Assembly: GCA_963785985.1 (NCBI GenBank)
Contig: CAWAXD010000024.1
Coordinates: 68,885 to 132,884 of the forward strand
DNA length: 64,000 bases
DNA from: an uncultured delta proteobacterium
GTDB taxonomy: Bacteria; Myxococcota_A; UBA9160; SMWR01
Direction of reading: 5' to 3'
Shown here: positions 3,687-60,218 of the stretch, in pieces
How positions within the stretch are numbered: the first letter of the stretch is position 1
Layout: each line of letters starts with the position of its first letter
Position numbers and translations under genes: made by a program
The notes under the pieces: model-generated
What the model was told of the DNA's origin: nothing
Seen by the model: only the letters and a program-made list of their open reading frames with translations
The model's database searches: none

Positions 3687-3749
3687 GGGGGGCTCTCCTT
3701 GCTGCCGGGGGGTCCGGCGCAGGCGCAGAGCATATCGGATCCGGGACGC

Positions 3750-9331: not shown

Positions 9332-9898
9332 TCACGGGTCCATCTTCTCGGGTGCGGGCGCGCCCGGGCCGAACCCGAAGGCTACCACCGCCTGCGGATC
9401 GCGCACGCGGCGCGCGAGCTCCTCGATGCGGCTCCCGAGCCGCGGGTGCACGAGCCGCGGCGCCAGCTCGCAGAGCGGCTCGAGCACGAAGGCGCGCTCG
9501 TGCAGCCGGGGATGCGGGATGCACAGCCCGCGCTCGTCGAGCACGAGCGAGCCGTAGAGCAGCAGATCGAGGTCGAGCGTGCGCGCGCTCCAGCGCGGAC
9601 CTCCGCGGCGGCGCCCGGCAGCGACCTCGATCTCGAGCAGTCGCTCGAGCAGCGCGCGCGGCGCGAGGCGCGTACGCAAGCGCGCGACGGCATTCAGATA
9701 GGGCCCCTGCGGCGGGGGACCGACGGGCGCCGTCTCGTACACCGTCGAGAGCGCCTCGACGCGCACGCCGGGATGCGCGCGCAGCGCGGCGATCGCCGCA
9801 GCCAGCTGCGCCGCGCGATCGCCGAGATTCGAGCCGAGCGCCACGTAGGCGTCGACCCTCCGGCCCTGCGGCGGTTGGGAGCGCGGCGCGCGGGTCAT
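9332..9898 (-). CDS. folK: 2-amino-4-hydroxy-6-hydroxymethyldihydropteridine diphosphokinase
   Basis: 188 aa: AYVALGSNLGDR...STVYETAPVG...RWSARTLDLDLLLYG...IPHPRLHERAFVLEPL, classic HPPK blocks. Confidence 0.9.
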   Translation of the reverse strand: MTRAPRSQPPQGRRVDAYVALGSNLGDRAAQLAAAIAALRAHPGVRVEALSTVYETAPVGPPPQGPYLNAVARLRTRLAPRALLERLLEIEVAAGRRRGGPRWSARTLDLDLLLYGSLVLDERGLCIPHPRLHERAFVLEPLCELAPRLVHPRLGSRIEELARRVRDPQAVVAFGFGPGAPAPEKMDP

Positions 9899-13673: not shown

Positions 13674-13748
13674 GACGGTTCTCCTCGGGGTTTCGCTGCA
13701 TGCTAAACCACCGCGGCGATCGCTGGCACCGGCGCTTTGCGACGCGCG

Positions 13749-14127: not shown

Positions 14128-14204
14128 CATTATGAATATCCAGGCCTCTTTATTTCTATTCTGCTATGCAAATATGAATTGGCAAAACTCGAGAGGGTCC
14201 CCCG
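14128..14204. promoter_or_regulatory. AT-rich divergent promoter/operator region upstream of the LysR gene
   Basis: The only strongly AT-rich patch nearby: ttatgaatatccaggcctctttatttctattctgctatgcaaatatgaattgg. It contains ATTC-N14-GAAT dyad symmetry and a repeated ATGAAT, compatible with a LysR T-N11-A type site. Confidence 0.35.
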
Positions 14205-15152
14205 ATGGCCGTCAGTTCCCAACCCGAAACCTCCGCAACCGCCATCCCGCTCGACTGGACGGCGCTGCGCGACTTCCTGGCGGTCGCCGACACCGGGAGC
14301 CTCTCCCGGGCGGCCCGCCGGCTCGCGGTCAGCCAGCCGACACTCACGCGCCGCATGGCGACGCTCGAGAAGCACCTGCGCACGGAGCTCTTCCGGCGCA
14401 CGCCGCGCGGGGTCGAGCTGACGGAGGCGGGCGAGTCGATCCTGCCCGCGGCGCGGCAGATGGAGCAGGAGGCGCACGCGGTCGAGCTCGCGATCTCCGG
14501 GCGCGACACGGCCCTCGCCGGGCTCGTGCGCATCACGGCGACCGAGGGCATCGGCATCCACTGGCTGACGCCCGCGCTCGCGGAGTTCCAGCTCGCGCAC
14601 CCGGCGATCGAGATCCAGCTGATGCTCCAGACGCAGGTCCTGAACCTGCTGCAGCGCGAGGCCGACATCGCGGTGCGTCTCTCGCGGCCGGTCCAGTCGG
14701 ACCTGGTGGCTCGCAAGGTGGGCGATCTCGCGTTCGGGCTCTACGCCTCCCGGGCCTACCTCGAGCGCCGCGGGCGCCCGGCGAAGCTGGAAGACCTGGC
14801 GCGACACAGCTGCGTGGCGTACGACGAGTCGGCGCGCTGGCTGAGCGGACCTGGCGCCGCGATCGAACGCGCGCTCTCCGCGGGTTCCGTCGCCTTCCGC
14901 GCCAACAGCGGACAGGCGCAGCTCGCGGCGATCCGGGCCGGACTCGGGGTCGGCACGGCGGTCCGCTTCCTCGCCGAGCGGCACGCCGAGCTCGAGCAGG
15001 TCTTGCCCGAGACGGAGATCGCATTCGAGCTGTGGCTGATCACCCACCCGGGCCTGCGCCGCAGCGCCCGCATGCGCGCGGTGTTCGACTTCCTGGTGGA
15101 GCGCTTCGCGGATGCCCGCGACGTGTTCAGGGGCCCGGGGCGGGACACCTAG
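14205..15152 (+). CDS. LysR-family transcriptional regulator
   Basis: 315 aa. N-terminal wHTH LRDFLAVADTGSLSRAARRLAVSQPTLTRRMATLE plus a substrate-binding domain. Confidence 0.9.
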   Translation: MAVSSQPETSATAIPLDWTALRDFLAVADTGSLSRAARRLAVSQPTLTRRMATLEKHLRTELFRRTPRGVELTEAGESILPAARQMEQEAHAVELAISGRDTALAGLVRITATEGIGIHWLTPALAEFQLAHPAIEIQLMLQTQVLNLLQREADIAVRLSRPVQSDLVARKVGDLAFGLYASRAYLERRGRPAKLEDLARHSCVAYDESARWLSGPGAAIERALSAGSVAFRANSGQAQLAAIRAGLGVGTAVRFLAERHAELEQVLPETEIAFELWLITHPGLRRSARMRAVFDFLVERFADARDVFRGPGRDT

Positions 15153-16481: not shown

Positions 16482-17420
16482 CTATCTCGCTCGGAACCGC
16501 CCGAGATACGTCGTCGCCTCGACGGGCTCCTTCTGGATGGTCTCGAGCAGGCCGCTCAAGATGTCGTGGCAATCGAGCATCACCTTGCGCTTTTGATTGA
16601 GCGAGATGGATAGCGATCGGACATTGGTGTTCTCGCGCGAGAGCGCGAGGATCTGGGACTTGATCCCGGCGAACCGGGCATAGCTCGAAGCGGCCAGCGC
16701 GAGGTCGGCGCCGCCGGCCAGCTTCGCGAGCTTGCCCAGGCCCTCCAGGTCGCTGCGGACCCGTTCGTCTTCCTGGGCCATTCGGGCTTCCAGCTCGTCC
16801 ATCCGCGGGTCGCCAGCCTCTGCGATGTGCGGCGGAAGCAGGCTCTGGATGCGCAGCGCGGCGACCTGGGCGCCGAGCGCAAGCGCCATCACCTGCTTCG
16901 CGTCCCGTGTCGCGGCATTCGCGGTCACGAGGCGCGAGAGCGCGGCGCTCATCTCGTCGAGCGCGCCCGCGGCCGGGCCGAATGCCAGGGCAGCCGCCTT
17001 GAGATTGGTGTTCTCGACCGCCAATTTCAGCAGCTCGTCGTCGATCCGCTGGAACTCGGCGAAGCGCTCTGAGAATTCCGCGAGCAGCTCCTTCTCCGCC
17101 TGGGTTCCGCCTTTGTCGAGGAGCTCCGCCAACTCCCGCCGCTCACGCTCCACGTCCGCCGTGCTTGCGCGCGCCTGGTCCGCGAACGCCTGCGACTCCG
17201 GATCGGTGATCGAGAGCACGGCGCTCTTCTCCGCTTCCGAGGCCGCCACCAGACCCAGTTGCATCCGAGCCACCAGGTCCGTCCGCTGCGCCTTGGAGAC
17301 GAGCTGAGGGTCCGGTTTCGGTGGTCCACCGAAGAGCAGCACCAGCAGGATCAACAGCAACAAGATCGCCGCGCCAGCGGCCATCCAGAGGATGTCGCGG
17401 GTGCCGGGTCTGATCTTCAT
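16482..17420 (-). CDS. membrane-anchored MCP four-helix-bundle (ligand-binding type) domain protein without signalling domain
   Basis: ATG 17420 inside ORF 16482..17501. One TM (ILWMAAGAAILLLLILLVLLF) followed by long helical repeats (..AVENTNLKAAALAF.., ..SRENTNVRSLSISLNQKR..). No HAMP domain or methyl-accepting region. Confidence 0.6.
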   Translation of the reverse strand: MKIRPGTRDILWMAAGAAILLLLILLVLLFGGPPKPDPQLVSKAQRTDLVARMQLGLVAASEAEKSAVLSITDPESQAFADQARASTADVERERRELAELLDKGGTQAEKELLAEFSERFAEFQRIDDELLKLAVENTNLKAAALAFGPAAGALDEMSAALSRLVTANAATRDAKQVMALALGAQVAALRIQSLLPPHIAEAGDPRMDELEARMAQEDERVRSDLEGLGKLAKLAGGADLALAASSYARFAGIKSQILALSRENTNVRSLSISLNQKRKVMLDCHDILSGLLETIQKEPVEATTYLGRFRAR

Positions 17421-17546
17421 GCTGCGGGCTCGCAGGTCGTGCAATCGTGAATTCGAGAAGTCTGGCGTCCCGAACGATATCGGGCGTCTCTCGTACGGCA
17501 ACGGGCTCGCAGGCCGACGTCAGAGCGCGCGTTCGGTTCGCGGGTG

Positions 17547-18106: not shown

Positions 18107-19897
18107 ATGCAGCGTCCGATCCTCGAGCGGGTGTTCCGGTTTCTCCCGGCCGTCGGCTCCTTGCGCGGCTACGGCGCCTTCGACGCGCGCGCCGACGCGC
18201 TGGCGGGGATCACCGTGGCGGCGGTCGCCGTGCCCCAGGCGATGGCGTACGCGATGGTGGCCGGGCTCCCCGCACAGTACGGCCTCTACACCGCGATCGT
18301 GATGACGGCCGTCGGCGCCATCTCCACGTCGTCGCGACAGCTCATCAATGGCCCCACCAACGCGATCTCGATCGCACTGCTCTCCGCGCTCGCCCTGGTC
18401 GAAGGCCAGGACCAGAAGGTCCAGGCCGCCGTGCTGCTGGCCTTCATGGTGGGAGCCATCCAGCTCGGCATCACGCTGCTGCGGCTCGGCGATCTCACCC
18501 GCTACATCTCGCACTCGGTCATCGTGGGCTTCACGCTGGGCGCGAGCGGACTGCTCGTGCTCGATCAGCTGAAGAACCTGTTCGGCCTGCGCGGGGCGAG
18601 CGACGCGCACGCGCATTTCCTGGTGCGCTTCTGGCGCAACCTGAGCGAGGGCGGCGGCATCCATGCGGAAACCGCCGCCATCGGGCTCGGCACGATCGCG
18701 CTGGTGCTCGCGCTGCGCTGGCTGAAGGAGAGGCTCGGCTATCGGCTGCTGCCCGATCTGCTGATCGCGGTGGGCGCGATGGCGACGCTCGTCGCATGGC
18801 TCGGGCTCGAGACGCGCGGCGTCGCGGTGGTCGGCGAGATCCCCGCTCGGCTCCCGGGCTTCGCCACACCCGTTCTCGACGCGGCCGCGATCCGCGAGTT
18901 CTCCACCGCCGCGCTCGCGATCGCGCTGCTGGGCCTGCTCGAGGCGATCGCGATGTCGAAGGCGCTGGCGGCGCAAACGAAACAGCGCGTCGACATGAAC
19001 CAGCAGTGCCTGAGCGAAGGGCTCGCGAACCTCGCCGGGAGCTTCTTCCAGTGCGTGCCGGGCTCGGGGTCGCTCACGCGCTCGGCGATCAACCAACAGG
19101 CCGGCGCGTCGACGCAGTGGGCGGGCGTCGTCTCGGCGGCCGTCGTGGCGCTCACCATGTTCATGTTCGCGCCCTATGCGCGCTTCATCCCGCGCGCAGC
19201 GCTCGCGGGCATCCTGATGCTGACCGCGTGGCGGATGATCGATCGTCACGCGCTGCTCTATCACCTGCGGGCCACGCGTTTCGATGCCGCGATCGTCGCG
19301 ACGACCGCCTTCGCGGCGATCGCCGTCTCGGTCGAGTTCTGCGTCCTGATCGGCGTCTTCATGTCCTTCCTGCTCGCGGTGCCGCGCGCCGGGCGCATGC
19401 TGCTGACCGAGTTCGTGCTGACGCCGGATGGCGGCATCCACGAGCGGCTGCCGGAGGACGAGCCCTGCTCGCGCATGCTGATCTTCGGGCTCGAGGGCGA
19501 GCTTTTCTTCGGAGCGACGGGCAACCTCGAGCAGCACTTCCAGGCCATCGAACAACGCATCACCGAGACCACGCGCGTCCTCGTGCTGCGCATGAAGCGC
19601 GTGCGCAATCCGGACGCCGTCGGCCTCACGCTGCTCGAGGCCTTCGTGCACCGCATCAAGGCGAAGGGCGTACACATCGTGCTGTGCGGCGTCCGCTCCC
19701 AGCTCTACGAGACCATGCAGAAGACGGGACTCGCCGCGCAGCTCGGCGAGAAGGAGGTCTTCCTCGAGCGGCCGGTGCGGCTCACGAGCACGCTGCTGGC
19801 GATCCGCCACGCCTACGAGCTGATCCCGGATCGCTGCCCGACCTGCCCGCGCCGCGACGTCACGGTCGACGAGCGGAGCCTCTACTACAGCATCTGA
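18107..19897 (+). CDS. SulP-family anion (sulfate) permease with C-terminal STAS domain
   Basis: 596 aa: AGITVAAVAVPQAMAYAMVAGLPAQYGLYTAIV... plus a STAS-like tail. Confidence 0.9.
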   Translation: MQRPILERVFRFLPAVGSLRGYGAFDARADALAGITVAAVAVPQAMAYAMVAGLPAQYGLYTAIVMTAVGAISTSSRQLINGPTNAISIALLSALALVEGQDQKVQAAVLLAFMVGAIQLGITLLRLGDLTRYISHSVIVGFTLGASGLLVLDQLKNLFGLRGASDAHAHFLVRFWRNLSEGGGIHAETAAIGLGTIALVLALRWLKERLGYRLLPDLLIAVGAMATLVAWLGLETRGVAVVGEIPARLPGFATPVLDAAAIREFSTAALAIALLGLLEAIAMSKALAAQTKQRVDMNQQCLSEGLANLAGSFFQCVPGSGSLTRSAINQQAGASTQWAGVVSAAVVALTMFMFAPYARFIPRAALAGILMLTAWRMIDRHALLYHLRATRFDAAIVATTAFAAIAVSVEFCVLIGVFMSFLLAVPRAGRMLLTEFVLTPDGGIHERLPEDEPCSRMLIFGLEGELFFGATGNLEQHFQAIEQRITETTRVLVLRMKRVRNPDAVGLTLLEAFVHRIKAKGVHIVLCGVRSQLYETMQKTGLAAQLGEKEVFLERPVRLTSTLLAIRHAYELIPDRCPTCPRRDVTVDERSLYYSI

Positions 19898-19923
19898 AGC
19901 AGCGGTTCCGTAGAATCCCACGC

Positions 19924-20610
19924 ATGAGTCCGCTCCCGGATCCGCGTCTCTCCGCGCTGCTCGAACGTCTGCACGCGCGCAGCGCGGGCGAGAGCCGGGA
20001 GCTCGCGGCTTACTTCGGCGAGCGCGCGCGGGAAGGCTCGCTCGACTGGAACGCCTTCGATGACCGCACCCACGAGTTCCTGAGTGACAAGCTCGTTGCG
20101 CTCGATCGCGACAAGGCGGAGCTCTGCTACGAGCTCTGCCGTTCGCTGCGCGCGAAGCGCGTCGTGGAGGCGGGGACTTCGTACGGAGTCTCGACGCTCT
20201 ATCTCGCCGCCGCCGTGCGCGAGAACGTGAGGCAGGACGGCGGCCAGGGGATCGTGATCGGCACGGAGTACGAGCCGACGAAGGCGCGCGCCGCGCGCGC
20301 CCACTTCGCCGAAGCGGGCCTCTCCGGGTTCATCGATCTGCGCGAGGGCGACCTGCGCGAGACGCTCGCCAGCATCGGCGGGCCCGTCGATTTCGCGTTG
20401 ATCGACATCTGGACGCCGATGGCGCGGCCCGCGCTGGAAAAGATCGCGCCGCACCTGCGCCTCGGCGCGATCGTGATCGCGGACAACACCACGCAGTTTC
20501 GCGAAGCCTATCGCGACTACTTCGCGTTCGTGAACGACCCGGCGAACGGCCTGCGCACGCTCACGCTCCCGTTCGAGGGCGGCCTCGAGCTCACGACGAA
20601 GCACGCGTAG
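19924..20610 (+). CDS. class I SAM-dependent O-methyltransferase
   Basis: ATG 19924 inside ORF 18796..20610, 228 aa. Motif I VVEAGTSYGVSTLYLA and catechol-O-MT-like layout (FALIDIW, IVIADN). Confidence 0.8.
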   Translation: MSPLPDPRLSALLERLHARSAGESRELAAYFGERAREGSLDWNAFDDRTHEFLSDKLVALDRDKAELCYELCRSLRAKRVVEAGTSYGVSTLYLAAAVRENVRQDGGQGIVIGTEYEPTKARAARAHFAEAGLSGFIDLREGDLRETLASIGGPVDFALIDIWTPMARPALEKIAPHLRLGAIVIADNTTQFREAYRDYFAFVNDPANGLRTLTLPFEGGLELTTKHA

Positions 20611-20627: not shown

Positions 20628-21521
20628 ATGCGGGATCTCTCGGGCAGAACGGCCGTCGTCACCGGCGCCGGCAGCGGCATCGGCCGCGCGCTGTCCCGGG
20701 CGCTCGCGGCCGAGGGCTGCCGGCTGGCGCTGGTGGACATCGATCCTGCGGGCCTCGACGAGACGCGGCGCCTGCTCGCCGATGTTCCGGTCAGCACGCA
20801 CCTGGCGAACGTCGCCGATCGCGAGCGCATGGCGGCGCTTCCCGCCGAGATCCAGGCCGAGCACGGCGCCATCCACCTGCTCTTCAACAACGCCGGCGTC
20901 ACCATCAGCGAGTCGTTCGAAGACAGCTCGCTCGCGAGGCTCGAGCTCGTGATCGGCGTCAATCTCTGGGGAGTCCTCTACGGCTGCCACTACTTCCTCC
21001 CGTACCTGAAGCAGGCCGGCGAAGCCCAGATCGTGAACACCTCGAGCATGGCCGGCTTCCTGGGCCTGCCCAATCAGGCCAGCTACTCGCTCACCAAGGC
21101 GGCCGTCAAGTCCTTGAGCGAGACGCTGCGCGTGGAGCTGGCCGGACACGGCATTGGCGTCACCAGCCTGCATCCCGGTGCGATCAAGACCAACATCATG
21201 AAGGCGGCCGCGGGCTACGGCGGCGATGCCGAAGAGACGGCGCGGCTGGAAAAGCTGGTCATGCGCTTCGGCATGGCGCCCGAGAAGCTGGCAGCCAGGG
21301 CGATCCGTGCGGTGAAGCGCAACCGCATGCGCCAGCGGATCGGATTCGATGCCTATCTGGTGGATTGGCTGAAGCGGCTGCTGCCGGTGGCGATCCATGC
21401 GCCGTTTCGCTGGGCGTTCACGCGCGCGGCGAGCGTCCGGGCGGAAAACGTCAGGGCGCAGCCTGGTGGTGGCGCTGCCACGTCTGGAAGCTCTGACCCG
21501 AGGCCGGATCGCGGCCGCTGA
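20628..21521 (+). CDS. SDR-family oxidoreductase
   Basis: 297 aa: TGAGSGIGRA (TGxxxGxG), NNAG, and catalytic YSLTKAAV (YxxxK). Confidence 0.9.
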   Translation: MRDLSGRTAVVTGAGSGIGRALSRALAAEGCRLALVDIDPAGLDETRRLLADVPVSTHLANVADRERMAALPAEIQAEHGAIHLLFNNAGVTISESFEDSSLARLELVIGVNLWGVLYGCHYFLPYLKQAGEAQIVNTSSMAGFLGLPNQASYSLTKAAVKSLSETLRVELAGHGIGVTSLHPGAIKTNIMKAAAGYGGDAEETARLEKLVMRFGMAPEKLAARAIRAVKRNRMRQRIGFDAYLVDWLKRLLPVAIHAPFRWAFTRAASVRAENVRAQPGGGAATSGSSDPRPDRGR

Positions 21522-21533
21522 GCGCGGCGCGCC

Positions 21534-21887
21534 CTACGGCGCCGGCGCCTCACCCGGCTCCACCTCGATCTTCACCTCGGGCTGCATCTCGACGAACGTC
21601 ACCCGGGAGCAGAGGTCAGCGGGGTCGAGCACGCTCTTGCCGTCCTGCTCGCGGCTCTCGAACACCAGCATCTGCGACTGGTACCCGCCTCCCTTCAGGA
21701 AGACCGTGTGCGGCTGGTCTTTCGCCAGCTTCATCGTCTTGGGTGAGCCTTCGAGCAGGCGCCCGTCGACGTAGACCATCACGTTTTTCGGCACGCACTC
21801 GAGCGAGACGCGCTGGCCGGTGGCGCAGCCGAAGGCTGCCGCGACGGCGGTGGCGACGAGCGCGGCGCGGATCAGAGGGCGAGGCAT
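21534..21887 (-). CDS. PEGA-like domain lipoprotein
   Basis: ATG 21887 inside ORF 21534..22250, 117 aa. Lipobox AAAFGC, then VMVYVDGRLLEGSPKTMKL...HTVFLKGGGYQSQ (PEGA-type beta-sandwich pattern). Confidence 0.6.
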   Translation of the reverse strand: MPRPLIRAALVATAVAAAFGCATGQRVSLECVPKNVMVYVDGRLLEGSPKTMKLAKDQPHTVFLKGGGYQSQMLVFESREQDGKSVLDPADLCSRVTFVEMQPEVKIEVEPGEAPAP

Positions 21888-22011: not shown

Positions 22012-23286
22012 GTGTCGGCCCTCCGGACCCTACCCCCCGAGCTCCTGACGCACGTGCCCGGCCCGCGCTCGCTCGCGCTCGCCAGCCGCCTCGCCGCGTG
22101 CGAGAGCCGCAACGTCACGGCGCTGACACCCACTCCCATCTTCTGGGAGCGCGCGCAGGGCGCCAACGTCTGGGATGCCGACGGCAATCGCTTCATCGAT
22201 CTGACGGCCGGCTTCGGCGTCGCGAACGTGGGGCACGCCCACCCTCGCATCGTCGCGGCCGTGCGCGAGCAAGCCGAGCGGCTGCTGCACGGACTCGGCG
22301 ACGTGCATCCGCCCGCCGTGAAGGTCGAGCTGCTCGAAGCCCTCGTGCGCCGCTATCCGGGCGGCGTTCCCGCGCGCGGCGTGCTCGGCTCCTCCGGCTC
22401 GGACGCGGTCGAGGCGGCGCTCAAGACCGCGCTGCTCGCGAGCGGGCGGGCGGGCGTGGTGGCGTTCGAGGGCGCGTATCACGGCCTCACGCTGGGCGCG
22501 CTCGACGCCACCTGGCGCCAGGACTTCCGCGCCCCGTTCGCGGCGCGGCTGCCGGGCGCGACGGTCTTCGCGCGCTTTGGCGACGCCGCGGACGTCCGGC
22601 GCGCGGCGAGCACGTGCCGCGTCCCGGTCGGCGCGCTGCTCGTCGAGCCCATCCAGGGACGCGGCGGTGAGCGCATTCCGCCGCGCGGCTTCCTGGCCGC
22701 GCTGCGCGACTTGTGCGACGCGGAGGGCTGGCTGCTGATCGCGGACGAGGTCTACACCGGATTCGGTCGCACGGGGCGCTGGTTCGCGTGCGAGCACGAG
22801 GGCGTGATTCCCGATCTGCTGTGCGTGGGGAAGGGCCTCGCCTCCGGCATGCCGATCTCGGCGTGCCTCGGACGGCTCGCGGTGATGGAGGCCTGGCCGG
22901 CGTCGCACGGCGAGGCGCTGCACACGCAGACCTTCCTCGGTCATCCGCCCGGCTGCGCGGCGGCGCTCGCCTCGCTCGCCGTGATCGAGGAGGAGAAGCT
23001 CGTCGAACGCGCGGCCGAGACCGGCGCGCGCGCGCTCGCCCATCTGACCCGGCGCTGCGCCGGTCGCACCGGTTGCGCCGACGTGCGCGGCCTCGGGCTC
23101 CTGCTCGCGATCGAGTGCGACACGCCCGAGCGCGCCGCGCGCGCCTGCGCCGAGGCGCTGGCCCGCGGCGTGATCGTGCTGCCGTCGGGCGACGACGGGC
23201 GCGTGCTCTCGATCACCCCGCCGCTCGCGATCGAGCCGGAGCTGCTCGAGCTCGCGCTCGACCGGCTCGTGGAAACGCTCGCATGA
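22012..23286 (+). CDS. class-III (omega-type) PLP aminotransferase
   Basis: Lies in ORF 21820..23286. ANVWDADGNRFIDLTAGFGVANVGH, SGSDAVEAALK, LLIADEVYTGFGRTGRWFA, GKGLASGMP (PLP lysine). Start provisionally GTG 22012. ATG 21886 would collide with the divergent lipoprotein start. Confidence 0.85.
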   Translation: MSALRTLPPELLTHVPGPRSLALASRLAACESRNVTALTPTPIFWERAQGANVWDADGNRFIDLTAGFGVANVGHAHPRIVAAVREQAERLLHGLGDVHPPAVKVELLEALVRRYPGGVPARGVLGSSGSDAVEAALKTALLASGRAGVVAFEGAYHGLTLGALDATWRQDFRAPFAARLPGATVFARFGDAADVRRAASTCRVPVGALLVEPIQGRGGERIPPRGFLAALRDLCDAEGWLLIADEVYTGFGRTGRWFACEHEGVIPDLLCVGKGLASGMPISACLGRLAVMEAWPASHGEALHTQTFLGHPPGCAAALASLAVIEEEKLVERAAETGARALAHLTRRCAGRTGCADVRGLGLLLAIECDTPERAARACAEALARGVIVLPSGDDGRVLSITPPLAIEPELLELALDRLVETLA

Positions 23287-24399
23287 TGCGCGGCCCCGAC
23301 CCGGCGCGCAGGGATCTCGACGCGCGCGTGCTCGCGTGGATGCGAGAGCCTGTCTGGCGCTCGGACGACGCGCGCTTCGAGGCGCTCGCGCTCGAGCTCT
23401 TCGCGTTCCAATGGGAACGCTGTCTGCCCTATCGGCGCTTCTGCGAAGGCCGCGGCGTGCATCCGTCGCGGGTCTCGCGCTGGCAGGAGATCCCCGCCGT
23501 GCCGACGGGAGCCTTCAAGGAGCTCGAGCTGCGCAGCTTCCCGGCGCAGCTCTCGAGCCACGTGTTCCGCACGAGCGGCACCGCGACCTCCGCGCGCGGC
23601 GCCCTGCACCTCGACACGCTCGAGCTCTACGAGGCGTCGCTGCTGCCGAGCTTCGCGCGTTTCGTGCTGCCCGATCTCGCGCAGGGCGAACGCCTGCCGA
23701 TCCTCGTGCTCGCGCCGTCCCCGCGCGAGGCCCCGGACTCCTCGCTCTCGCACATGTTCGGCGTGCTGCTGCGGGAGCTCGGAACGCCGGAGAGCGGATT
23801 CTTCCTGCGCGAGGGAGTCCTGCGCAGCGACGAGCTGCTCGCCGCGCTCGCGCGAGCTGGAGAACAGGGCGGCCGCGTCGCCATGTGCGGCACCGCGTTC
23901 GCGTTCGTCTTCCTGCTCGACGAGCTCGCGCGCCGCGGACGCGCGCTCGCGCTTCCGCCCGGCGCGCGCATCATGGAGACCGGGGGCTTCAAGGGCCGCT
24001 CGCGCGAGCTCGGCCGCGACTTCGCTCTACGCCGAGATCGAGGCGCGCCTCGGCGTGCCCGCCGCGCGCATCGTGAATCAATATGGAATGACGGAGCTCG
24101 GCAGCCAGTTCCACGATTCGCAGCTGCGTCTGCCGTACGAGCCGCGCCGCAAGCTCGGCCCGCCCTGGGCGCGCGTGAAGCTCGTCGAGCCCGTGGGCGG
24201 CGGCCCGGCGCCCGAGAACGAGCTGGGCGCAATCGCCGTCGTCGATCTCGCCAATACCGGCAGCGTGCTCGCGCTGCAAACGGCCGATCTCGGTCGCCGG
24301 ATCGGCGACGGCTTCGACGTGCTCGGACGCGAGCCGGGCGCCGAGGCGCGCGGCTGCTCGATCGCAGCCGAGGAGCTGCTCGGCCAGGCGGGCACATGA
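23283..24399 (+). CDS. LuxE-like acyl-protein synthetase (fatty-acid activating), reading frame interrupted by an apparent +1 shift near 24018-24027
   Basis: First frame (23283 to about 24023): ...LELFAFQWERCLPYRRFCEGRGV...IPAVPTGAFK...FRTSGTATSARG...IMETGGFKGRSRE. It continues in the next frame (24025-24399): LYAEIEARLGVPAARIVNQYGMTELGSQF...ARGCSIAAEELL. The two parts are colinear with Vibrio LuxE. The ATG overlaps the upstream stop (ATGA 23283-23286). Confidence 0.75.
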
Positions 24400-25677
24400 C
24401 ACGAGAGGACGTCATGAATCGGCTCGCGGAGCTGCGCGAGGCGGGCGTCAAGCTGCGGCGCCGCCCGGCGCGCGACACGCTCGCGTCGCTCGCGCGGGTC
24501 CTCGAGGCTGTGGCGCGATCCGGGCTCGCCGTGGCGGCGACGGCTCGCGGCGGAGCTGCCGGGCGTCACGGGCTTTTCGGCCGAGAACGTGTGCGAGGGT
24601 CTCGCGCGCGGGCTGGCGTCGTGGAACGGCGAGGCCCTGCTCGCGCTCGCCCGAGCCGAGCTGGGGGATCCCGCGCGCGCCGATGCCGCGGGCAGCAGCA
24701 TGCTGTCGGGCTTCGACGTGACGGCCGTCGTGCTGGCGGGCTCGATCCCGCAGCCGACGCTCGTCGCGCTCCTCGCCCCGCTGGTGCTGCGCTCGCCGGT
24801 GCTTGCGAAGCCGGCGTCGCGCGATCCGGTGACGCCCGGGCTGGTGGCCGAGTCGATCGCGGCCGTCGACGCGGAGCTCGGCCGCTGCATCGCCATCGCC
24901 ACTTTCGGATCGCACGACGAAGCCGGCCTCGGCGCGCTGCTCGAGGCGGATTGCGTCGCCGCGACGGGCGCGGACGCGAGCATCGCCGCGCTCGCCGCGC
25001 GCGTGCGGCCGCCGCGCCGCTTCATCCCGTCCGGTCATCGCCTGTCGGTCGCGGCGCTGGGTCCGGAGGCGCTCGCGGGCGATGCGCTCGCAGCCGCGGC
25101 CGAAGCCATCGCGCTCGACGTAGCGCTGTGGGATCAGCTGGGCTGCCTGTCGCCGCTCTCGGTCTACGCGGTCGGCGGCTCCGACACGGCGCCGGATCGG
25201 CTGGCCGAGCGACTCGCGCAAGCCCTCGAGGCGCTCGAGCGCCGCTTGCCGCGCGGCAAGCCCGAGGCCGCCGCCGCGGCTGCGTTCCGGGTCGAGTGCG
25301 ATGCCGCCGAGCTGCGGGCGGCCGCGGGAGAACGCGTGCGGCTATTCGGCGGTGCGCCGCAGCGCTTCGCCGTGGTGCGCGAGTCGGATGCCGGCCTGCG
25401 CCCGGCCCCGCTCCACCGCTTCGTCCGCGTGCACCCTGTAGCTGACTTGCCGGCGCTGCTCGCGGCGCTGCGGCCGCTCGCGCCGCATCTGGCGGGCGTC
25501 GCGCTGGCTGGCTTCGGCGCCGGCGCCGACGCCGTCGCGCGCGGCCTCGCCGACCTCGGCGCCTCGCGCCTGTGCCGGCCCGGGGAGCTCCAGGCGCCGC
25601 CGCTCGCCTGGCGCCACGAAAATCGCCCGGTGTTGCTGCCCTTCGCGCGCTTTACGGATCGCGAAGCCTGGGAGTAG
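24396..25677 (+). CDS. LuxC-like acyl-CoA/acyl-protein reductase (aldehyde-forming), reading frame interrupted by an apparent +1 shift near 24510
   Basis: ATG 24396 overlaps the luxE-like stop (ATGA). N-terminus MTREDVMNRLAELREAGVKLRRRPARDTLASLARVLEA is in one frame. It continues in the next frame as WRDPGSPWRRRLAAELPGVTGFSAENVCEGL... (ORF 24589..25677), with the candidate catalytic Cys in WDQLGCLSP. Confidence 0.75.
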
Positions 25678-25678
25678 A

Positions 25679-27226
25679 GTGGGACCCTTGAAGATCTACC
25701 TCGTCACGCCTCGGAATCCCACGAGCTTCTGGACCTACGACGAGATCCTTCCGGTCCTCGGCAAGCGCTGCATCTTCCCGAATCTCTCGATGCCGACGAT
25801 CGCCGGGCTCACGCCGCCGCCGCACGAAGTCGTGCTGTGCGACGAGAACGTCGAAGACATCAACTTCGATTTCGACACCGACATCGTCGGCGTCACGGGC
25901 TACATCGTCCACCGCGAGCGCATGTTCGAGATCATCGACGAGTTCCGGCGCCGCGGCCGCTTCGTCGTGGTGGGTGGGCCCTTCGCGAGCTTGTGTCCCG
26001 AGCAGCTGCGCGACCGCTGCGATGCGCTGTTCGTCGAGGAGGCCGAGGAGACCTGGAGCGCCTTCCTCGCCGATTTCGAGGCGGGCGCTCCGAAGCGCGA
26101 GTACCGGCCGGACGAGAAGCCGGACATGACGCGCTCGCCGACGCCACGCTTTGATTTGCTGCGCGTCGATCGCTACCACGCGCTCACCATCCAGTTCGCG
26201 CGCGGCTGCCCCTTCAATTGCGAGTTCTGCGACATCATCGTCGTCTACGGACGCCGCCCGCGCGCAAAGAGCGTCGATCAGGTGATGCGCGAGGTGCGCG
26301 AGTGTCACCGCCTCGGCGCGCGGCAGGTCTTCATCGTCGATGACAACTTCATCGGGAACAAGAAGCTCGCGAAGGAGCTGTTGCGCGAGCTCGCGCGCTT
26401 CGGGAGCGAGCACGGCTATCCGCTCGATTTCCAGACCGAGGCGTCGCTCAACGTCGCGCAGGACGACGAGCTGCTCGCGCTCCTGCGCGCCGCGAACTTC
26501 ACGACGATCTTCATCGGGATCGAGAGCCCGCGCAAAGCCTCGCTCGCGGAATCGAAGAAGACGCAGAACCTGCGCGGAGATCTGGTCGAGAACGTGCGCC
26601 GGGTCCAGTCCTACGGCATCCAGGTGCAGGCCGGCATGATCGTCGGCTTCGATCACGACGACACCGGCATCTTCGAGGAGCAGCTGCGCTTCATCCAGGA
26701 AGCCCGGATTCCCGTCTCGATGACCGGGATGCTGCAAGCGATGCCGAAGACGCCGCTCTACGACCGCATCGAGCGCGAAGGACGCCTGCTCACGGAATCG
26801 ACGGGGGATCAGTTCGTGCTCTCGAACGTCCTCCCCAGCCAGATGAGCCGGCGCGCGCTCTACGAGGGCTATCGCTGGCTGGCCGAGCAGCTCTACGACT
26901 TCCGCAACTACCGCGAGCGCACGCTGGCGTTCCTGATGAACCGCGGCACGCAGATCCACGGCGGCCGGAACCTGCGCCCGGGCGATCTGAAGCGGCTCGC
27001 GAGCGTGCTGCGCGACACCGTCCTGCTCGGAGGTCCGCGGCGCGCCTGGTTCACGCTCTCGCTGCTCGGGGCGACGCTCCTGCGCCGGCCGTCCGTGCTC
27101 AAGGAGGCGGTTTCCTTCGCCATCGTCCACAAGGCGTTCTACGCGTACATGCGCCAGCTGCAGACGGTCCTCGACGCGGCGCTGCGCGAGTTCGAGCCCG
27201 CCGCCGAGCCCGATCCGATCCCGTAA
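25679..27226 (+). CDS. B12-binding-domain radical SAM protein with DUF4070-type C-terminal extension
   Basis: 515 aa. N-terminal cobalamin-binding Rossmann-like region, CPFNCEFCD (CxxxCxxC), and a long helical tail. GTG 25679 lies 1 nt after the luxC-like stop. Confidence 0.88.
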   Translation: MGPLKIYLVTPRNPTSFWTYDEILPVLGKRCIFPNLSMPTIAGLTPPPHEVVLCDENVEDINFDFDTDIVGVTGYIVHRERMFEIIDEFRRRGRFVVVGGPFASLCPEQLRDRCDALFVEEAEETWSAFLADFEAGAPKREYRPDEKPDMTRSPTPRFDLLRVDRYHALTIQFARGCPFNCEFCDIIVVYGRRPRAKSVDQVMREVRECHRLGARQVFIVDDNFIGNKKLAKELLRELARFGSEHGYPLDFQTEASLNVAQDDELLALLRAANFTTIFIGIESPRKASLAESKKTQNLRGDLVENVRRVQSYGIQVQAGMIVGFDHDDTGIFEEQLRFIQEARIPVSMTGMLQAMPKTPLYDRIEREGRLLTESTGDQFVLSNVLPSQMSRRALYEGYRWLAEQLYDFRNYRERTLAFLMNRGTQIHGGRNLRPGDLKRLASVLRDTVLLGGPRRAWFTLSLLGATLLRRPSVLKEAVSFAIVHKAFYAYMRQLQTVLDAALREFEPAAEPDPIP

Positions 27227-27356: not shown

Positions 27357-27770
27357 GTGATCCGCCTCTCCCGCCTGTCCGACTACGGCATCGTGCTGAT
27401 GGCGTTCCTCGCCGAGCAGCCGGCCGAGTCCCAGCACAGCGCGCGCGACATCGCGCAGGGCACGCGGCTGCCGCTGCCGGTCGTGAGCAAGATCCTGAAG
27501 GCGCTCGCGCGCGAAGGGCTGCTGCACTCGCAGCGCGGGCCGCGCGGTGGTTACACGTTGGCGCGTCGGCCTGAAGAGATCTCGGTGGCGGAGATGATCA
27601 CGGCGCTCGAAGGTCCGATCGGTCTCACGGAGTGCACGATGCATCCGGGGCAGTGCGTGCAGGAAGCCCGCTGTCACGTGCGCAAGCCCTGGCAGCAGAT
27701 CAACCACATCGTCCGCAGCGCGCTCGCGGGCGTGACGCTCGCGCAGCTGGCGGCGTCCGACGGCCGCTAG
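27357..27770 (+). CDS. Rrf2-family transcriptional regulator (SUF system Fe-S assembly regulator type)
   Basis: 137 aa: [19 protein letters not shown]..., wHTH, and three clustered Cys ([16 protein letters not shown]). Located directly upstream of sufB. Confidence 0.88.
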
Positions 27771-27783
27771 AAGGACCCGGGGC

Positions 27784-29244
<1,461 letters not shown>

Positions 29245-29278
29245 CCCGCGTGCGGGAAGGCCTCGAGCGAGGAATCCG

Positions 29279-30027
<749 letters not shown>

Positions 30028-30031
<4 letters not shown>

Positions 30032-31371
30032 GCGACCTCGACGCCGCGCGCGATCATTACGCGGAGCGCGCGGGCGCCTTCGCGGCGTCCGCCGGTCTTC
30101 ACGATCCGGAATGGCTGCGCGGGCTGCGCGCGCAAGCCACGGCCCACTTCGCCGAGCAGGGCCTTCCGAGCACGAAGCTCGAAGAATGGCGCTACACGAA
30201 CGTGATGCCGCTCGCCCGGGTACCATTCGAGCTGCCCGGCTCCGAGCCGGCGCCCATCACCCGCGCCGCGGTCGAGTCGCTCTGCTTCCCCGTGTTCGCG
30301 TGCAGCGTCTTCGTCTTCGTGGACGGCCGCTTCCGGCCCGAGCTCTCGTCGCCCCGCGCGCTCTCCGGGAGCCTGCGCGTCGAGAGCCTCGCGGAGCTGC
30401 GGGCGCGCGCGCCCGGGCGGCTCGCGGGCCGGCTGGGCCGCATTGCCGACACGAAGCGCCAGCCCTTCGTGGCGCTGGGCAGCGCATTTCTCGACGATGG
30501 CGCCTGCCTCTTCGTTCCGCGCGGGACGCGCGTGGAGCAGCCCGTCCACGTGGTGCAGCTGGCGAGCGGCGCGGCGCCCGATCGCGTCTGCCACCCCCGC
30601 CTGCTGATCGTCGCGGAGCCCGGCAGCCACGTCACGCTGATCCAGGATTTCGTGTCGCTGTCGGAAGCGCGCGGCTTCACCAACGCGGTGGCCGAGGTCA
30701 CGCTCGAGCCGGGCGCAGCCGTGGATCTGGTGCTGCTGCAGCGCGAGAACGCGGATAGCTTCCACGTCTCGAACCTCGAAGTGCGGATCGCGCGCGACGC
30801 ACGTTTCGCTGCCCATACCCTGACGCTCGGCGGCGGCTTCGTGCGCAACGACCTGAACGCCGTGCTCGAGGACGAAGGCGCCTCGCTGCGGCTCGACGGG
30901 CTCACGGTCGCGGGCGGCAAACAGCTGGTCGACAACCACACCGTCGTCGATCACGCGCTGCCGCACGGCGAGAGCCGCCAGCGCTACAAGAGCGTGCTCG
31001 GCGGCGAGGCGCGCGGCATCTTCCGTGGCCGCGTGATCGTGCGGCCGGACGCGCAGAAGACCGTGGCCTCGCAATCGAGCGCGAACATCCTGCTCAGCGA
31101 AGGCGCCGAGATCGACGCGAAGCCGCAGCTCGAGATCTGGGCCGACGACGTGAAGTGCAGCCATGGCGCGTCGATCGGCCGCCTCGATGAAGACGCGCTC
31201 TTCTACCTGCGCTCGCGCGGCATCGCCGTAGCCAGGGCGCGCGATCTGCTCGTGCAGGGCTTCGCCTCCGAGGTGCTCGCGAGCCTGCCGTCGCCGGCGC
31301 TGGCCGAAGGCCTGACGGAGCTGCTGCGCGAGCAGATGCGCGGCGCGGGGGCGGGGGAGGGCGCGCCGTGA
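30028..31371 (+). CDS. sufD: Fe-S cluster assembly protein SufD
   Basis: GTG 30028 overlaps the sufC stop (GTGA), inside ORF 29479..31371. EEWRYTN motif and a SufB/D beta-helix C-terminus (..KCSHGASIGRLDEDALFYLRSRGI..). Confidence 0.9.
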
Positions 31372-32588
31372 AGCTCGACGCCGAGCGCGCGCGCGCGGAC
31401 TTCCCGATCCTGCGCACGACCGCGCGCGGGAAGCCCCTCGTGTTCCTCGACAGCGCCGCGAGCGCGCAGAAGCCGCGCGCGGTGCTCGACGCGATGCAGA
31501 GCTTCTACGAGACCAGCTACGCGAACGTGCACCGCGGCGTCTACGAGCTCTCGGAGCGCGCCACGCAGGCGTTCGAAGGCGTGCGCGGAAAGGTCGCGCG
31601 TTTCATCGGCGCCGCCGAAGCCCGCGAGATCGTCTTCGTGCGCGGCACCACGGAGGCCATCAATCTCGTCGCGCACGGGATCGCGCGCAGCGCGCTCGGC
31701 CCCGGAGACGAAGTGCTGATCACGGAGCTCGAACATCACTCGAACATCGTCCCCTGGCAGATCGCATGCGCCGAGCGCGGCGCGAAGCTGCGGGTGGTCG
31801 GGATCGACGATCGCGGGGATCTGAGACTCGACGAGCTCGACAAGCTGCTCGGACCGCGCACGAAGCTGCTCGCGCTAGCTCACGTCTCGAATGCGCTCGG
31901 CACCATCAATCCAGTGCGCGAGATCGTGAAGCTCGCGCACGAGCGCGGTGTGCCCGTGCTGCTCGACGGCGCGCAGGCGGTGCCGCATCAGGCGGTCGAC
32001 GTGCAGGAGCTCGCTTGCGATTTCTACGCCTTCTCGGCGCACAAGCTGTTCGGCCCCACGGGCGTGGGCGTGCTCTACGGCCGCGCGGACCGGCTCGAGG
32101 CGCTTCCGCCCTACCAGGGCGGCGGCGACATGATCCTCTCGGTCCGCTTCGAGGCATCGACGTATCAGGGCATCCCCTACAAGTTCGAAGCGGGGACTCC
32201 CGACATCGCCGGCGTCGTCGGACTCGGTGCTGCGATCGATTACGTGAGCCGCCTCGGTCTCGACGCCATCGCGGCCCACGAGCACGAGCTGCTGCGCTAC
32301 GCGAGCGAATCCCTGGCCCGCGTGCCCGGCGTGCGCCTGATCGGAACGGCGCGCGAGAAGGCGGCCGTGATCTCGTTCGTGCTGGAGGGAATCCACGCGC
32401 ACGACGTCGGGACGATCCTCGACCAACATGGAATCGCGGTTCGCACGGGTCACCACTGCGCGCAGCCCGTGATGCAGCGCTACGGCATCCCCGCCACCGT
32501 GCGCGCCTCGTTCGCGCTCTACAACACCCGCGCCGACGTCGATGCCCTGGTGGCCGGACTCCTGAAGGTGCGCGAGGTCTTCGCCTGA
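31368..32588 (+). CDS. sufS: cysteine desulfurase SufS
   Basis: 406 aa: HHSNIVPW, SAHKLFGPTG (PLP lysine), RTGHHCAQP (catalytic Cys). The start overlaps the sufD stop. Confidence 0.95.
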   Translation: MKLDAERARADFPILRTTARGKPLVFLDSAASAQKPRAVLDAMQSFYETSYANVHRGVYELSERATQAFEGVRGKVARFIGAAEAREIVFVRGTTEAINLVAHGIARSALGPGDEVLITELEHHSNIVPWQIACAERGAKLRVVGIDDRGDLRLDELDKLLGPRTKLLALAHVSNALGTINPVREIVKLAHERGVPVLLDGAQAVPHQAVDVQELACDFYAFSAHKLFGPTGVGVLYGRADRLEALPPYQGGGDMILSVRFEASTYQGIPYKFEAGTPDIAGVVGLGAAIDYVSRLGLDAIAAHEHELLRYASESLARVPGVRLIGTAREKAAVISFVLEGIHAHDVGTILDQHGIAVRTGHHCAQPVMQRYGIPATVRASFALYNTRADVDALVAGLLKVREVFA

Positions 32589-33040
32589 TGTCCGACCTGC
32601 GCGAGCTCTACCAGTCCGTGATCCTCGATCACAACAAGACGCCGCGGAACTTCCGCCATCCGGCGGACGCGAACCGCTCCGCCGAGGGATACAATCCCTT
32701 GTGTGGCGATCAGCTCACGGTGTTCCTGACCGTCGAGGACGGCGTCGTGAAGGACGCCGCCTTCGAAGGCTCCGGCTGCGCGATCTCGACGGCCTCGGCG
32801 TCGCTGATGACCGAGAGCGTGCGGGGCCGGCGCGACGACGAGGTCGAGAAGATGTTCGAGAGCTTCCATCAGCTCGTGACCTCCGATCCGGCCGCGCCGG
32901 CGCCGGACGAGGGGCTCGGCAAGCTGGCGGTCTTCGGCGGCGTCCGGGAGTTCCCCGTGCGCGTGAAGTGTGCGACGCTGGCCTGGCACACGCTGCGCGC
33001 GGCGCTGCACGGCAGCCGCGCGCCGGCGACGACGGAATGA
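32588..33040 (+). CDS. sufU: SufU/IscU-like Fe-S sulfur-transfer (scaffold) protein
   Basis: ATG 32588 overlaps the sufS stop. 150 aa: LYQSVILDHNKTPRN, NPLCGD, GSGCAIS, VKCATLAW. Confidence 0.88.
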   Translation: MSDLRELYQSVILDHNKTPRNFRHPADANRSAEGYNPLCGDQLTVFLTVEDGVVKDAAFEGSGCAISTASASLMTESVRGRRDDEVEKMFESFHQLVTSDPAAPAPDEGLGKLAVFGGVREFPVRVKCATLAWHTLRAALHGSRAPATTE

Positions 33041-33432
33041 GCGACATGAGCGAGATGAACGGGGCGAGCGGCACGAGCGAGGGCGACGGCGCTCGCGTGG
33101 AGGCGGGAGCCAGCGCGGCGAGCAGCCCCGACGCGATCCGCGAGCGCGTGATCGAACAGCTGCGGACGGTCTTCGACCCGGAGATCCCCGTCAACATCTA
33201 CGAGCTCGGCCTGATCTACGAGGTGAAGGTCGACGGCGCGGGGCAGGTCGGCATCCGCATGACGCTCACCTCGCCGATGTGCCCGGCCGCCGAGCAGCTG
33301 CCGCCCGAGGTCGAGAGCAAGGCGCGCAGCGTGGCCGGCGTCAGCTCGGTGCAGCTCGATCTCGTCTGGGATCCCCCGTGGAACCCGAGCATGATGTCCG
33401 AGGCCGCGCGGCTCGATCTCGGCATGGTCTGA
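33037..33432 (+). CDS. DUF59 (SufT/PaaD-like) Fe-S assembly protein
   Basis: ATG 33037 overlaps the sufU stop (ATGA). Low-complexity N-terminus, then VFDPEIPVNIYELGLIYEV...MTLTSPMCPA. Confidence 0.85.
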   Translation: MSDMSEMNGASGTSEGDGARVEAGASAASSPDAIRERVIEQLRTVFDPEIPVNIYELGLIYEVKVDGAGQVGIRMTLTSPMCPAAEQLPPEVESKARSVAGVSSVQLDLVWDPPWNPSMMSEAARLDLGMV

Positions 33433-60179: not shown

Positions 60180-60218
60180 AGGGAACGCGGCGCGACGTCG
60201 CGCAAGACGGGAGACGGC

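Follow-up and report, generated by a model that had tools for sequence, protein, structure and literature searches.

We describe a conserved three-gene module in a stretch of 64,000 nucleotides (hereafter the window, ∼70% GC) from the genome of an uncultured member of the Myxococcota (contig CAWAXD010000024.1 of assembly GCA_963785985.1). The module occupies most of an operon region at 21.8–27.3 kb on the plus strand and consists of the genes for a class-III aminotransferase (AT), a LuxE-like acyl-protein synthetase and a LuxC-like acyl-thioester reductase, followed by a gene for a B12-binding radical S-adenosylmethionine (rSAM) protein (Table 1). The conserved functional unit is the AT–LuxE–LuxC trio and not the quartet. 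As judged from its sequences, the trio probably constitutes an acid-to-aldehyde-to-amine module, the substrate of which is most likely not a fatty acid and may be a small heteroaromatic acid that belongs to cofactor metabolism.

Relatives were collected with a LuxE-alignment search limited to one genome per species. This gave 246 genomes with a LuxE relative, the best 80 of which were analysed together with the locus L001. All of these 80 are metagenome-assembled genomes from uncultured Myxococcota ('Deltaproteobacteria'), a few with wrong labels, and the neighbour counts for AT, LuxC and rSAM take in the loci with enough flanking sequence. The AT gene lies directly 5' of luxE in 73 of 73 related Myxococcota loci, and luxC lies directly 3' of luxE in 70 of 70. 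Gene order, strand and junctions in the window are as described, with exact coordinates, in an earlier note made on this DNA from the letters alone: the AT stop codon TGA (23284–23286) overlaps the LuxE start codon ATG (23283–23285; ATGA at 23283–23286), the LuxE stop codon TGA (24397–24399) overlaps the LuxC start codon ATG (24396–24398; ATGA at 24396–24399), and the LuxC stop codon TAG (25675–25677) is followed by the GTG start codon of the rSAM gene (25679–25681). Four-nucleotide overlaps of this kind recur at 75 of 82 AT/LuxE and 68 of 78 LuxE/LuxC junctions of the relatives, and the coupling of the three genes therefore exceeds chance. The note had also raised the question of whether LuxC/LuxE pairs recur beside a class-III AT in related genomes, and they do. 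Where the AT gene starts is uncertain. Its open reading frame (ORF) is open from 21820; GTG 22012 is a plausible start codon, and a better ribosome-binding site precedes ATG 21886. At 70% GC, scans of this DNA for sigma-70 promoters and terminators yielded no informative result. Across the related loci the identity to the window proteins is 62–90% for AT (mostly 70–79%), 60–90% for LuxE (mostly 60–69%) and 43–83% for LuxC (mostly 47–63%), compared with 76–93% for SufB. The constraint on the trio thus looks similar to that on core genes, and the locus has the appearance of a vertically inherited housekeeping locus.

LuxE and LuxC are both discontinuous as read, each beginning in frame 0 and finishing in frame 1. 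At the first of the two sites (Table 1) all 80 LuxE-matching locus ORFs split into two frames in tblastn. Removal of one base per gene brings both proteins above their Pfam cut-offs, with 32.2 bits for LuxE (PF04443, cut-off 24.9 bits) and 143.5 bits for LuxC (PF05893, cut-off 21 bits), so the profile search that the earlier note had suggested for the frame-corrected proteins supports both assignments. The uncorrected N-terminal fragment of LuxE reaches 18.5 bits and stays under the cut-off. Corrected LuxE aligns along its whole length with an intact 371-amino-acid metagenome protein (P0001) at 96% identity. The high GC content and the two frameshifts together also produce a spurious ORF of 910 amino acids in frame 0 (22713–25445, plus strand), which spans the 3' end of the AT gene together with luxE and the greater part of luxC and which automatic gene calling might list as a protein.

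Two explanations can be given for these lesions: the module in this window has either been inactivated very recently or been mis-assembled. That luxE and luxC are genuine and very recent pseudogenes, with the module dead in this genome and the operon decaying, comes close to an even chance without quite reaching it. Both lesions are independent 1-nt insertions without a counterpart in three relatives (L004, L001 and L002, with 95, 89 and 83% nucleotide identity to the window, respectively). When every ORF of 84 related loci was compared with the window by tblastn, which makes ∼25 kb testable, the only consistent split-frame signals were these two sites, 485 nt apart in adjacent genes. Such clustering argues against random error, since two random errors in 25 kb would both strike luxE–luxC about 1% of the time. 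Apparent split-frame signals at 8.5–8.6 kb were traced to gene boundaries and to shadow ORFs on the antisense strand, and a GC3 frame plot was too noisy to reveal further frameshifts. Against decay, no excess of amino-acid changes is seen on the window branch: those in LuxE on this branch and on that of the relative number 13 versus 13 (L001) and 2 versus 6 (L004), while the 30 versus 19 changes in LuxC do not differ significantly. The pN/pS ratios of 0.26–0.30 for LuxE/LuxC are close to those of the intact AT (0.23) and rSAM (0.18) genes. Single-base insertions are moreover the type of lesion made by consensus errors, and the second site falls on a position that varies among the relatives (GAGCTG versus GAGGTG), as expected under strain collapse.

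The LuxE family profile matches LuxE in PDB entry 7xc6 (chain E) over its full length (E = 2e-19), and the LuxC-like protein matches chain A of the same entry (E = 1e-6). In LuxE of Photobacterium phosphoreum the adenylation pair is K238/R355 and the acyl-accepting cysteine is C364 in the TRxxKGCxLS motif (PMC9157457). These residues align with K237, R349 and C358 (RGC), which are invariant in 26 family members including the corrected window protein. The cysteine of the WDQLGCLSP segment of the LuxC-like protein aligns with the catalytic Cys296 of 7xc6 chain A (chain index 285; YDQQACFS). Because LuxE keeps its Lys, Arg and Cys and LuxC its Cys, the prediction of an ATP-dependent reductase that takes an acid via an acyl-cysteine to the aldehyde is well supported. 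Following the established LuxC–LuxE mechanism, LuxE would use ATP to adenylate a free carboxylic acid and would hold the resulting acyl group at Cys358 near its C terminus. This group would then pass to the catalytic Cys of LuxC and be reduced with NAD(P)H to the aldehyde; the catalytic residues for these steps are seen here.

The pair resembles that of the luminous P. phosphoreum (7XC6; PMC9157457) in its two-protein architecture with adjacent, overlapping genes and in a LuxE with a terminal [KR]GC motif and without the C-terminal subdomain of ANL enzymes, as well as in the residues named above. It differs in its low identity to the canonical proteins (21% for LuxE and 24% over 242 residues for LuxC), in its coupling to an AT and in a LuxC that is ∼55–65 amino acids shorter, and its substrate is likely not a long-chain fatty acid. 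Fragments of both proteins stay below equivalog level in NCBIfam: residues 1–266 of LuxE score 26.4 bits (NF052244, cut-off 550) and a 362-amino-acid C-terminal fragment of LuxC scores 46.9 bits (NF052251, cut-off 750). The window does not contain a lux operon (luxCDABE). No luxD homologue was found in it by tblastn, and its sole Bac_luciferase-family genes are two F420-type LLM-class oxidoreductases located 19 and 33 kb from the operon, so that the trio stands without luxA, luxB or luxD, as the note had stated. Both LLM proteins (2658–3749, minus strand, and 60180–61151, plus strand) score over F420-dependent NCBIfam thresholds (TIGR03559, 395 bits, and TIGR03564, 326 bits). They suggest that this Myxococcota organism uses coenzyme F420 and are not luciferases.

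The LuxE family comprises 830 clusters at E ≤ 1e-30, and among the representatives of the 50%-identity clusters LuxE–LuxC fusions as well as fusions of a zinc-dependent alcohol dehydrogenase (Zn-ADH) with LuxE are found. From these fusions it follows that the aldehyde has a dedicated consumer of varying type. The ∼410-amino-acid N-terminal extensions of long LuxE representatives were considered as AT–LuxE fusions, and are actually Zn-ADH–LuxE fusions.

In the trio the consumer would be the AT, which could turn the reactive aldehyde at once into a primary amine. The protein at the head of the operon is a class-III transaminase, as the note had proposed from its sequence, with its Aminotran_3 score (Table 1) and its place 5' of luxE in all loci counted. 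It reaches no NCBIfam equivalog cut-off, the best being a GabT subfamily (306 bits versus 639). The closest PDB entry is a mycobacterial GabT (4ffc, E = 2e-71), and the score on the PigE model is 260 bits. The AT shares its best matches with the GabT/ArgD/putrescine aminotransferase subgroup and keeps the Lys, Asp and Thr that serve pyridoxal phosphate (PLP; K268, D239 and T297). It departs from this subgroup in 45 of 45 aligned members (the window AT and 44 orthologues, L005–L084), where GabT R141 is replaced by Leu, E211 by Arg, Q242 by Tyr or Phe and R398 by Ser, Ala or Gly. The carboxylate arginines R141 and R398 and the gate Glu211 that mark GabT/ArgD-type enzymes are thus missing. These substitutions, which affect all substrate-binding positions of GabT, include a charge swap at E211/R398 and are invariant or nearly so in the clade, mark the AT family as a distinct, unnamed class-III subfamily. 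Loss of both carboxylate-binding arginines fits an acceptor without a carboxylate. Roles like those of glutamate-1-semialdehyde aminomutase or of ArgD/LysJ were considered, and nothing singles out either. The enzyme is not of the standard GabT type.

The closest relatives of the window LuxE in annotated records come from Pantoea (43% identity), Azospirillum (42%) and Lactiplantibacillus plantarum (35%), and further close relatives occur in Pseudomonas silvicola, Priestia and Niallia. They belong to sister cassettes in which LuxE and LuxC are accompanied by a short-chain dehydrogenase/reductase (SDR) and by an ABC importer with an NMT1/THI5-like (ThiY type) binding protein or an NCS2 nucleobase-type permease. 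As these transporters hinted at thiamin-precursor genes, riboswitches were searched for. Pantoea, Azospirillum and P. silvicola each have an Rfam thiamin pyrophosphate (TPP) riboswitch above the gathering score directly 5' of luxE. The riboswitch of L. plantarum lies 5' of the permease gene that heads the cassette, and Niallia has a tandem pair ∼1.9 kb upstream. A scan of metagenomes with TPP-type LuxE as the query returned 80 loci. A strict TPP core motif is found 140–210 nt upstream of luxE in 52 of them, a TPP riboswitch scores in five of ten motif-negative loci, and all loci with enough flank have LuxC followed by an SDR, or an ABC importer and an SDR. The three cassette SDRs that were scanned all have NCBIfam NF006393 as their best match. 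The cassette occurs widely among Alphaproteobacteria, Gammaproteobacteria and Bacilli (L086 8731–14857, L087 8674–12219, L090 1390–6321, L092 4784–8116, L094 6743–7612 and L095–L174), and its FabG-like SDR matches oarX by description.

The window LuxE is 35–43% identical to TPP-type LuxE, while TPP-type LuxE proteins of different phyla are 40–42% identical among themselves. For LuxC the corresponding values are 27–31% and 38–42%, and the window LuxC is also ∼55–65 amino acids shorter than TPP-type LuxC. The 26 Myxococcota-type LuxE sequences, with that of the corrected window protein among them, share 106 invariant positions; all five TPP-type proteins have the same residue at 46 of these, and canonical LuxE has it at 24. 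The trio and the sister cassettes, its closest LuxE/LuxC relatives in annotated collections, share the LuxE-then-LuxC order and a dedicated aldehyde-consuming enzyme within the operon. The consumer is an SDR with an alcohol as the product in the cassettes and an aminotransferase in the trio, and the riboswitch and importer genes of the cassettes have no counterpart at the trio. Neither an SDR like that of the cassettes (Azospirillum query, ≥50% query coverage, E ≤ 1e-8) nor a transporter was found beside the trio in the window or its relatives, and none of the 80 TPP-type metagenome loci holds a 'bridge' cassette that would contain an AT and be TPP-regulated.

OarX is a FabG-like SDR encoded behind TPP riboswitches that has been without a known function for more than 20 years (PMC11223231). 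Oliveira-Filho, Rodionov and Hanson (2024) report that oarX occasionally clusters with an 'acyl-CoA synthetase' and propose carboxyl activation and reduction of pyrimidine carboxylic acid (PCA), methylthiazoleacetic acid (MTA) or thiamin acetic acid, but Corynebacterium glutamicum carrying oarX–fmnO, an operon that as described has no LuxE/LuxC-type genes, did not use PCA (PMC11223231). That paper names no LuxC-type reductase. The want of such a reductase may explain why C. glutamicum, with oarX–fmnO only, fails on oxidised thiamin fragments. Beside these systems we note a TIGR03560-family F420-dependent luciferase-like oxidoreductase (291 amino acids) in nine of the related loci and not in the window. 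In three loci examined its gene directly follows luxC (L007 10426–11301, L031 10409–11284 and L015 6051–6926), a placement reminiscent of the oarX–fmnO pairing. Genes for a regulator of the Rrf2 family and for an NADPH-dependent F420 reductase (L086 7753–8199, minus strand) diverge from the TPP-regulated cassette in Azospirillum. The presence of an Rrf2 gene near both this cassette and the Myxococcota module is probably a coincidence.

A link of the trio with thiamin is suggested by the similarity to TPP-type LuxE, by the shared invariant positions and by a gene for a thiamine-binding protein nearby (see below). A thiamin-related substrate is possible on these grounds, but clearly short of an even prospect. 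Among such acids PCA is the candidate, because it is the only one that would give a known salvage intermediate with an AT as the consumer. PCA would be converted via the 5-formyl pyrimidine to 4-amino-5-aminomethyl-2-methylpyrimidine, which would feed hydroxymethylpyrimidine (HMP) back into thiamin synthesis. This amine is a known substrate of TenA in thiamin salvage. In other phyla the same reductase pair would act with an OarX-like SDR or a Zn-ADH to give the alcohol directly and would be switched off by TPP. We regard PCA in particular as a doubtful substrate; the explanation of the trio as an acid-to-amine module for a heteroaromatic acid from cofactor metabolism, taken as a whole, is tentative and lies somewhat below an even chance. 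A wider version, in which LuxE/LuxC supply the missing carboxyl activation and reduction in an unrecognised vitamin B1 salvage of oxidised thiamin fragments such as PCA, OarX takes up the aldehyde in Proteobacteria and Bacilli, the AT has replaced OarX in Myxococcota as part of a constitutive core, with aminomethylpyrimidine for TenA as the product, and the rSAM protein widens the range of substrates, appears rather doubtful.

Several observations weigh against a thiamin-related role. No Rfam match to the TPP riboswitch (RF00059) at the gathering threshold is present in the window or in five Myxococcota loci, and the TPP core motif is found neither in the window nor in any Myxococcota locus, where the intergenic region between the HPPK and AT genes of the relatives is only ∼57 nt. 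Among the ∼30 window ORFs scanned there is no thiC, thiD, thiE or tenA. The near-universal neighbour of the trio is HPPK, a folate gene, and not a thiamin gene. The divergence of LuxC means that its substrate could have changed, a single SDR step would suffice to arrive at HMP, and thiamin metabolism is not known to include a transaminase. Conservation at the level of core genes would be unusual for a salvage function. The comparative genomics of PMC11223231 favours thiazole or thiamin derivatives over the pyrimidine, and C. glutamicum did not use PCA, although its oarX–fmnO operon, by the description in that paper, has no LuxE/LuxC-type genes.

As an alternative, the same chemistry may act on another small polar acid, related to amino acids, polyamines or pterin/folate, in a housekeeping route of the clade to which the thiamin link would not have carried over. 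ArgB/C/D, LysZ/Y/J and ProB/A with ornithine aminotransferase are the comparators for such a route, of which ArgBCD and LysZYJ use phosphate activation. The core-gene-like conservation, the fixed place beside HPPK, adenylylsulfate (APS) reductase and suf genes, the lack of a TPP riboswitch in Myxococcota, the strong divergence of LuxC from its TPP-type counterpart and the relationship of the AT to GabT, ArgD and putrescine aminotransferases are all consistent with it. On the other hand, the arginines by which the carboxylates of GABA, ornithine-type substrates and 2-oxoglutarate are held are missing from the AT, the window LuxE is as close to TPP-type LuxE as TPP-type pairs from different phyla are to each other and no neighbour singles out a candidate substrate. 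Taken by itself this route is somewhat unlikely.

The earlier note had envisaged a lipid or signalling amine. A LuxCDE-type reductase would then make a long-chain aldehyde, the AT a fatty amine destined for a membrane lipid or a signal, and the rSAM protein would methylate or rearrange it. LuxE and LuxC are indeed the only relatives with solved structures. TabE and TabA of tambjamine BE-18591 offer a precedent of a LuxC-like aldehyde dehydrogenase (ALDH) with a class-III transaminase, PigE and TamH fuse a reductase to a transaminase, the AT scores on the PigE model and hopanoid methylases are found among the DUF4070-bearing class B rSAM enzymes. The low identity to true LuxE and LuxC, the NCBIfam scores of their fragments far under the cut-offs and the nearest kin behind TPP riboswitches, paired with nucleobase/HMP-type transporters, speak against this. 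No acyl carrier protein (ACP), thioesterase (luxD), fatty acid synthase (FAS) or polyketide synthase (PKS) gene was found near the trio, the locus appears housekeeping and vertically inherited and the rSAM gene is often missing. A fatty-amine pathway is thus improbable, and the lipid part of the earlier proposal is not upheld.

A catabolic direction, with the AT making an aldehyde from an amine by deamination and the LuxC-like ALDH then oxidising this aldehyde, is very improbable: ALDH-superfamily enzymes usually oxidise aldehydes and GabT-type transaminases usually pair with a dehydrogenase, as E. coli gabT does with gabD beside it, but an ATP-consuming LuxE with a conserved acyl-cysteine has no role in oxidation, the sister cassettes pair the reductase with an alcohol-forming SDR/ADH and importers, and LuxC-type enzymes lack the Glu/Asn for thioester hydrolysis and act reductively (PMC12041015).

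The rSAM protein has all three domains that the note had given it, with 68.7 bits for Radical_SAM, 67.4 bits for DUF4070 and 35.2 bits for B12-binding, all above the Pfam cut-offs, and its CxxxCxxC motif (GCPFNCEFC) is intact. It shares this architecture with the class B families HpnP/HpnR, BchE and PhpK but belongs to no named family, the best NCBIfam score being 81 bits versus 600 for PhpK. Of 57 related loci, 22 have its gene after luxC, at a distance of 0–212 nt, and the other 35 lack it; in L002 luxC leads straight into Rrf2–sufBCDS. The orthologues are 72–95% identical, and all three that were looked up sit between LuxC and Rrf2–suf. As it is not overlapped with luxC and is missing from a close relative, the rSAM gene is not a defining part of the module. 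It is a dispensable accessory fourth gene, kept in ∼40% of the lineages and always in the same position in the loci examined, which has been vertically inherited and repeatedly lost. It may either serve the trio or merely sit between the trio and the Fe–S assembly operon. Consequently, the composition proposed in the earlier note stands for three of its four genes, and of the carboxylate-to-aldehyde-to-amine pathway with radical tailoring the chemistry is supported by residues, coupling and fusions, while radical tailoring as an obligatory part of the pathway is not.

The Rrf2–suf genes (27357..32588) begin after a gap of 130 nt downstream of the rSAM gene and are not part of the module. Rrf2 and SufB lie 3' of the module in 31 of 42 related loci, and the downstream order in the relatives is an Rrf2-family SUF regulator followed by sufBCDS–sufU–sufT. 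Relatives have separate sufU (NifU_N) and sufT (FeS_assembly_P) genes after sufS. In the window (32585–33432) FeS_assembly_P falls in the 3' half of a 243-amino-acid ORF (32701–33432), the 5' half of which looks out of frame, and sufU presumably corresponds to the 3' end of ORF 31766–33040.

Upstream, an HPPK gene is divergent from the module and 1.7–7.7 kb (median 2.35 kb) from luxE in 66 related loci. In 31 loci it adjoins a gene for an MTH1187-family thiamine-binding protein (TIGR00106, 95 bits) 2–5 kb upstream of luxE, and half of the loci whose upstream flank is long enough have this gene near the trio. Genes for an APS/PAPS reductase and a fumarylacetoacetase-family (FAH) protein are also found upstream in the relatives. 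The HPPK, reductase and FAH genes of the window lie at 6.9–9.9 kb. As HPPK and AT are divergent neighbours in the relatives and far apart here, ∼12 kb (9.9–21.9 kb) between them appear to be a lineage-specific insertion. The insert includes the small lipoprotein gene that the earlier note had described as PEGA-type and divergently transcribed. It is divergent, but the PEGA label has no Pfam support at E ≤ 0.01, and no homologue was found in the loci of 84 relatives. In some relatives the HPPK beside the AT is fused to an MFS transporter (586 amino acids; JGI 3300047160, 209–1969) or to an alpha/beta-hydrolase (∼470 amino acids; cluster c25, for example the L050 ORF on the minus strand, 2834–1419 nt upstream of luxE). 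Such fusions are unusual and suggest pterin salvage. The closest long relative, L001, carries group II intron RNA domains (RF00029 and RF02003; 3405–3465 and 5140–5281, minus strand) and a maturase-like ORF upstream of the operon; these intron domains are not in the window.

Table 1. Features of the operon region and of its surroundings in the window
Feature	Positions	Strand	Remarks
Class-III (fold-type I) aminotransferase (AT), head of the trio	22012..23286	+	Pfam Aminotran_3, 326 bits
LuxE-like acyl-protein synthetase (adenylating; self-acylates C-terminal Cys)	23283..24399	+	+1 frameshift; 371 amino acids when corrected
LuxC-like acyl-thioester reductase (ALDH superfamily)	24396..25677	+	+1 frameshift; 426 amino acids when corrected
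B12-binding rSAM protein with DUF4070 tail (class B), intact	25679..27226	+	Pfam; CxxxCxxC motif
Frameshift 1, luxE	24021..24022	+	Extra T (GAC-T-TCG) versus L004, L001 and L002
Frameshift 2, luxC	24506..24508	+	Extra base G/C, GAG-G-CTG (relatives GAGCTG or GAGGTG); split-frame tblastn signal
Rrf2-type SUF regulator	27357-27770	+	TIGR02944, 138 bits versus cut-off 110.65
sufB	27784-29244	+	
sufC	29279-30031	+	
sufD	to 31371	+	
sufS	31368-32588	+	
HPPK (folK)	9386..9850	-	Pfam HPPK, 134.8 bits; tblastn 66% identity to L088 HPPK
Acyl-CoA dehydrogenase (insert)	12426-13748	-	
LysR regulator (insert)	14178-15152		
4HB_MCP sensor protein (insert)	16482-17519	-	
SulP/STAS transporter (insert)	18107-19897		
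Methyltransferase (insert)	19900-20610		
SDR (insert)	20628-21521		
Small lipoprotein (insert)	21534-21887	-	

The logic of acid, aldehyde and amine is already known from TabE/TabA, TamH and PigE and from ArgBCD and LysZYJ, as is the chemistry of LuxC–LuxE. TabE falls into a sequence-similarity cluster that contains LuxC (bioRxiv 10.1101/2025.08.11.669332). TabE/TabA, TamH and PigE likewise take an activated carboxyl group via the aldehyde to a primary amine with a class-III aminotransferase, but act on ACP- or CoA-bound acyl chains within secondary-metabolite clusters, whereas in the trio a free acid would be activated by LuxE without a carrier protein, at a conserved housekeeping locus. A literature search on LuxC/LuxE with aminotransferase, radical SAM, Myxococcota, DUF4070 and fatty amine yielded no description of the gene cluster, in agreement with the note, which knew of no characterised pathway of this composition. 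The three-gene composition, the divergent AT subfamily, the housekeeping setting in an uncultured clade and the link of LuxE/LuxC with the thiamin regulon are new, none of them being found in the literature searched.

Were the pathway to be only a fatty-amine or a generic one, it would be a modest addition to this known logic. If the proposed function is correct, the trio would be an undescribed, conserved three-enzyme module for conversion of a free acid to an amine, and it would occur across the uncultured Myxococcota in no fewer than 80 species-level genomes and probably in ∼250. Two-protein ATP-dependent carboxylate reductases that channel the aldehyde to a transaminase would be useful acid-to-amine biocatalysts. 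An enzyme family known so far almost exclusively from bioluminescence, that of LuxE/LuxC, would become linked to cofactor metabolism, and the TPP-riboswitch sister cassettes would make the 20-year-old question of the function of OarX, for which the published negative tests were made in C. glutamicum without the reductase pair, directly testable.

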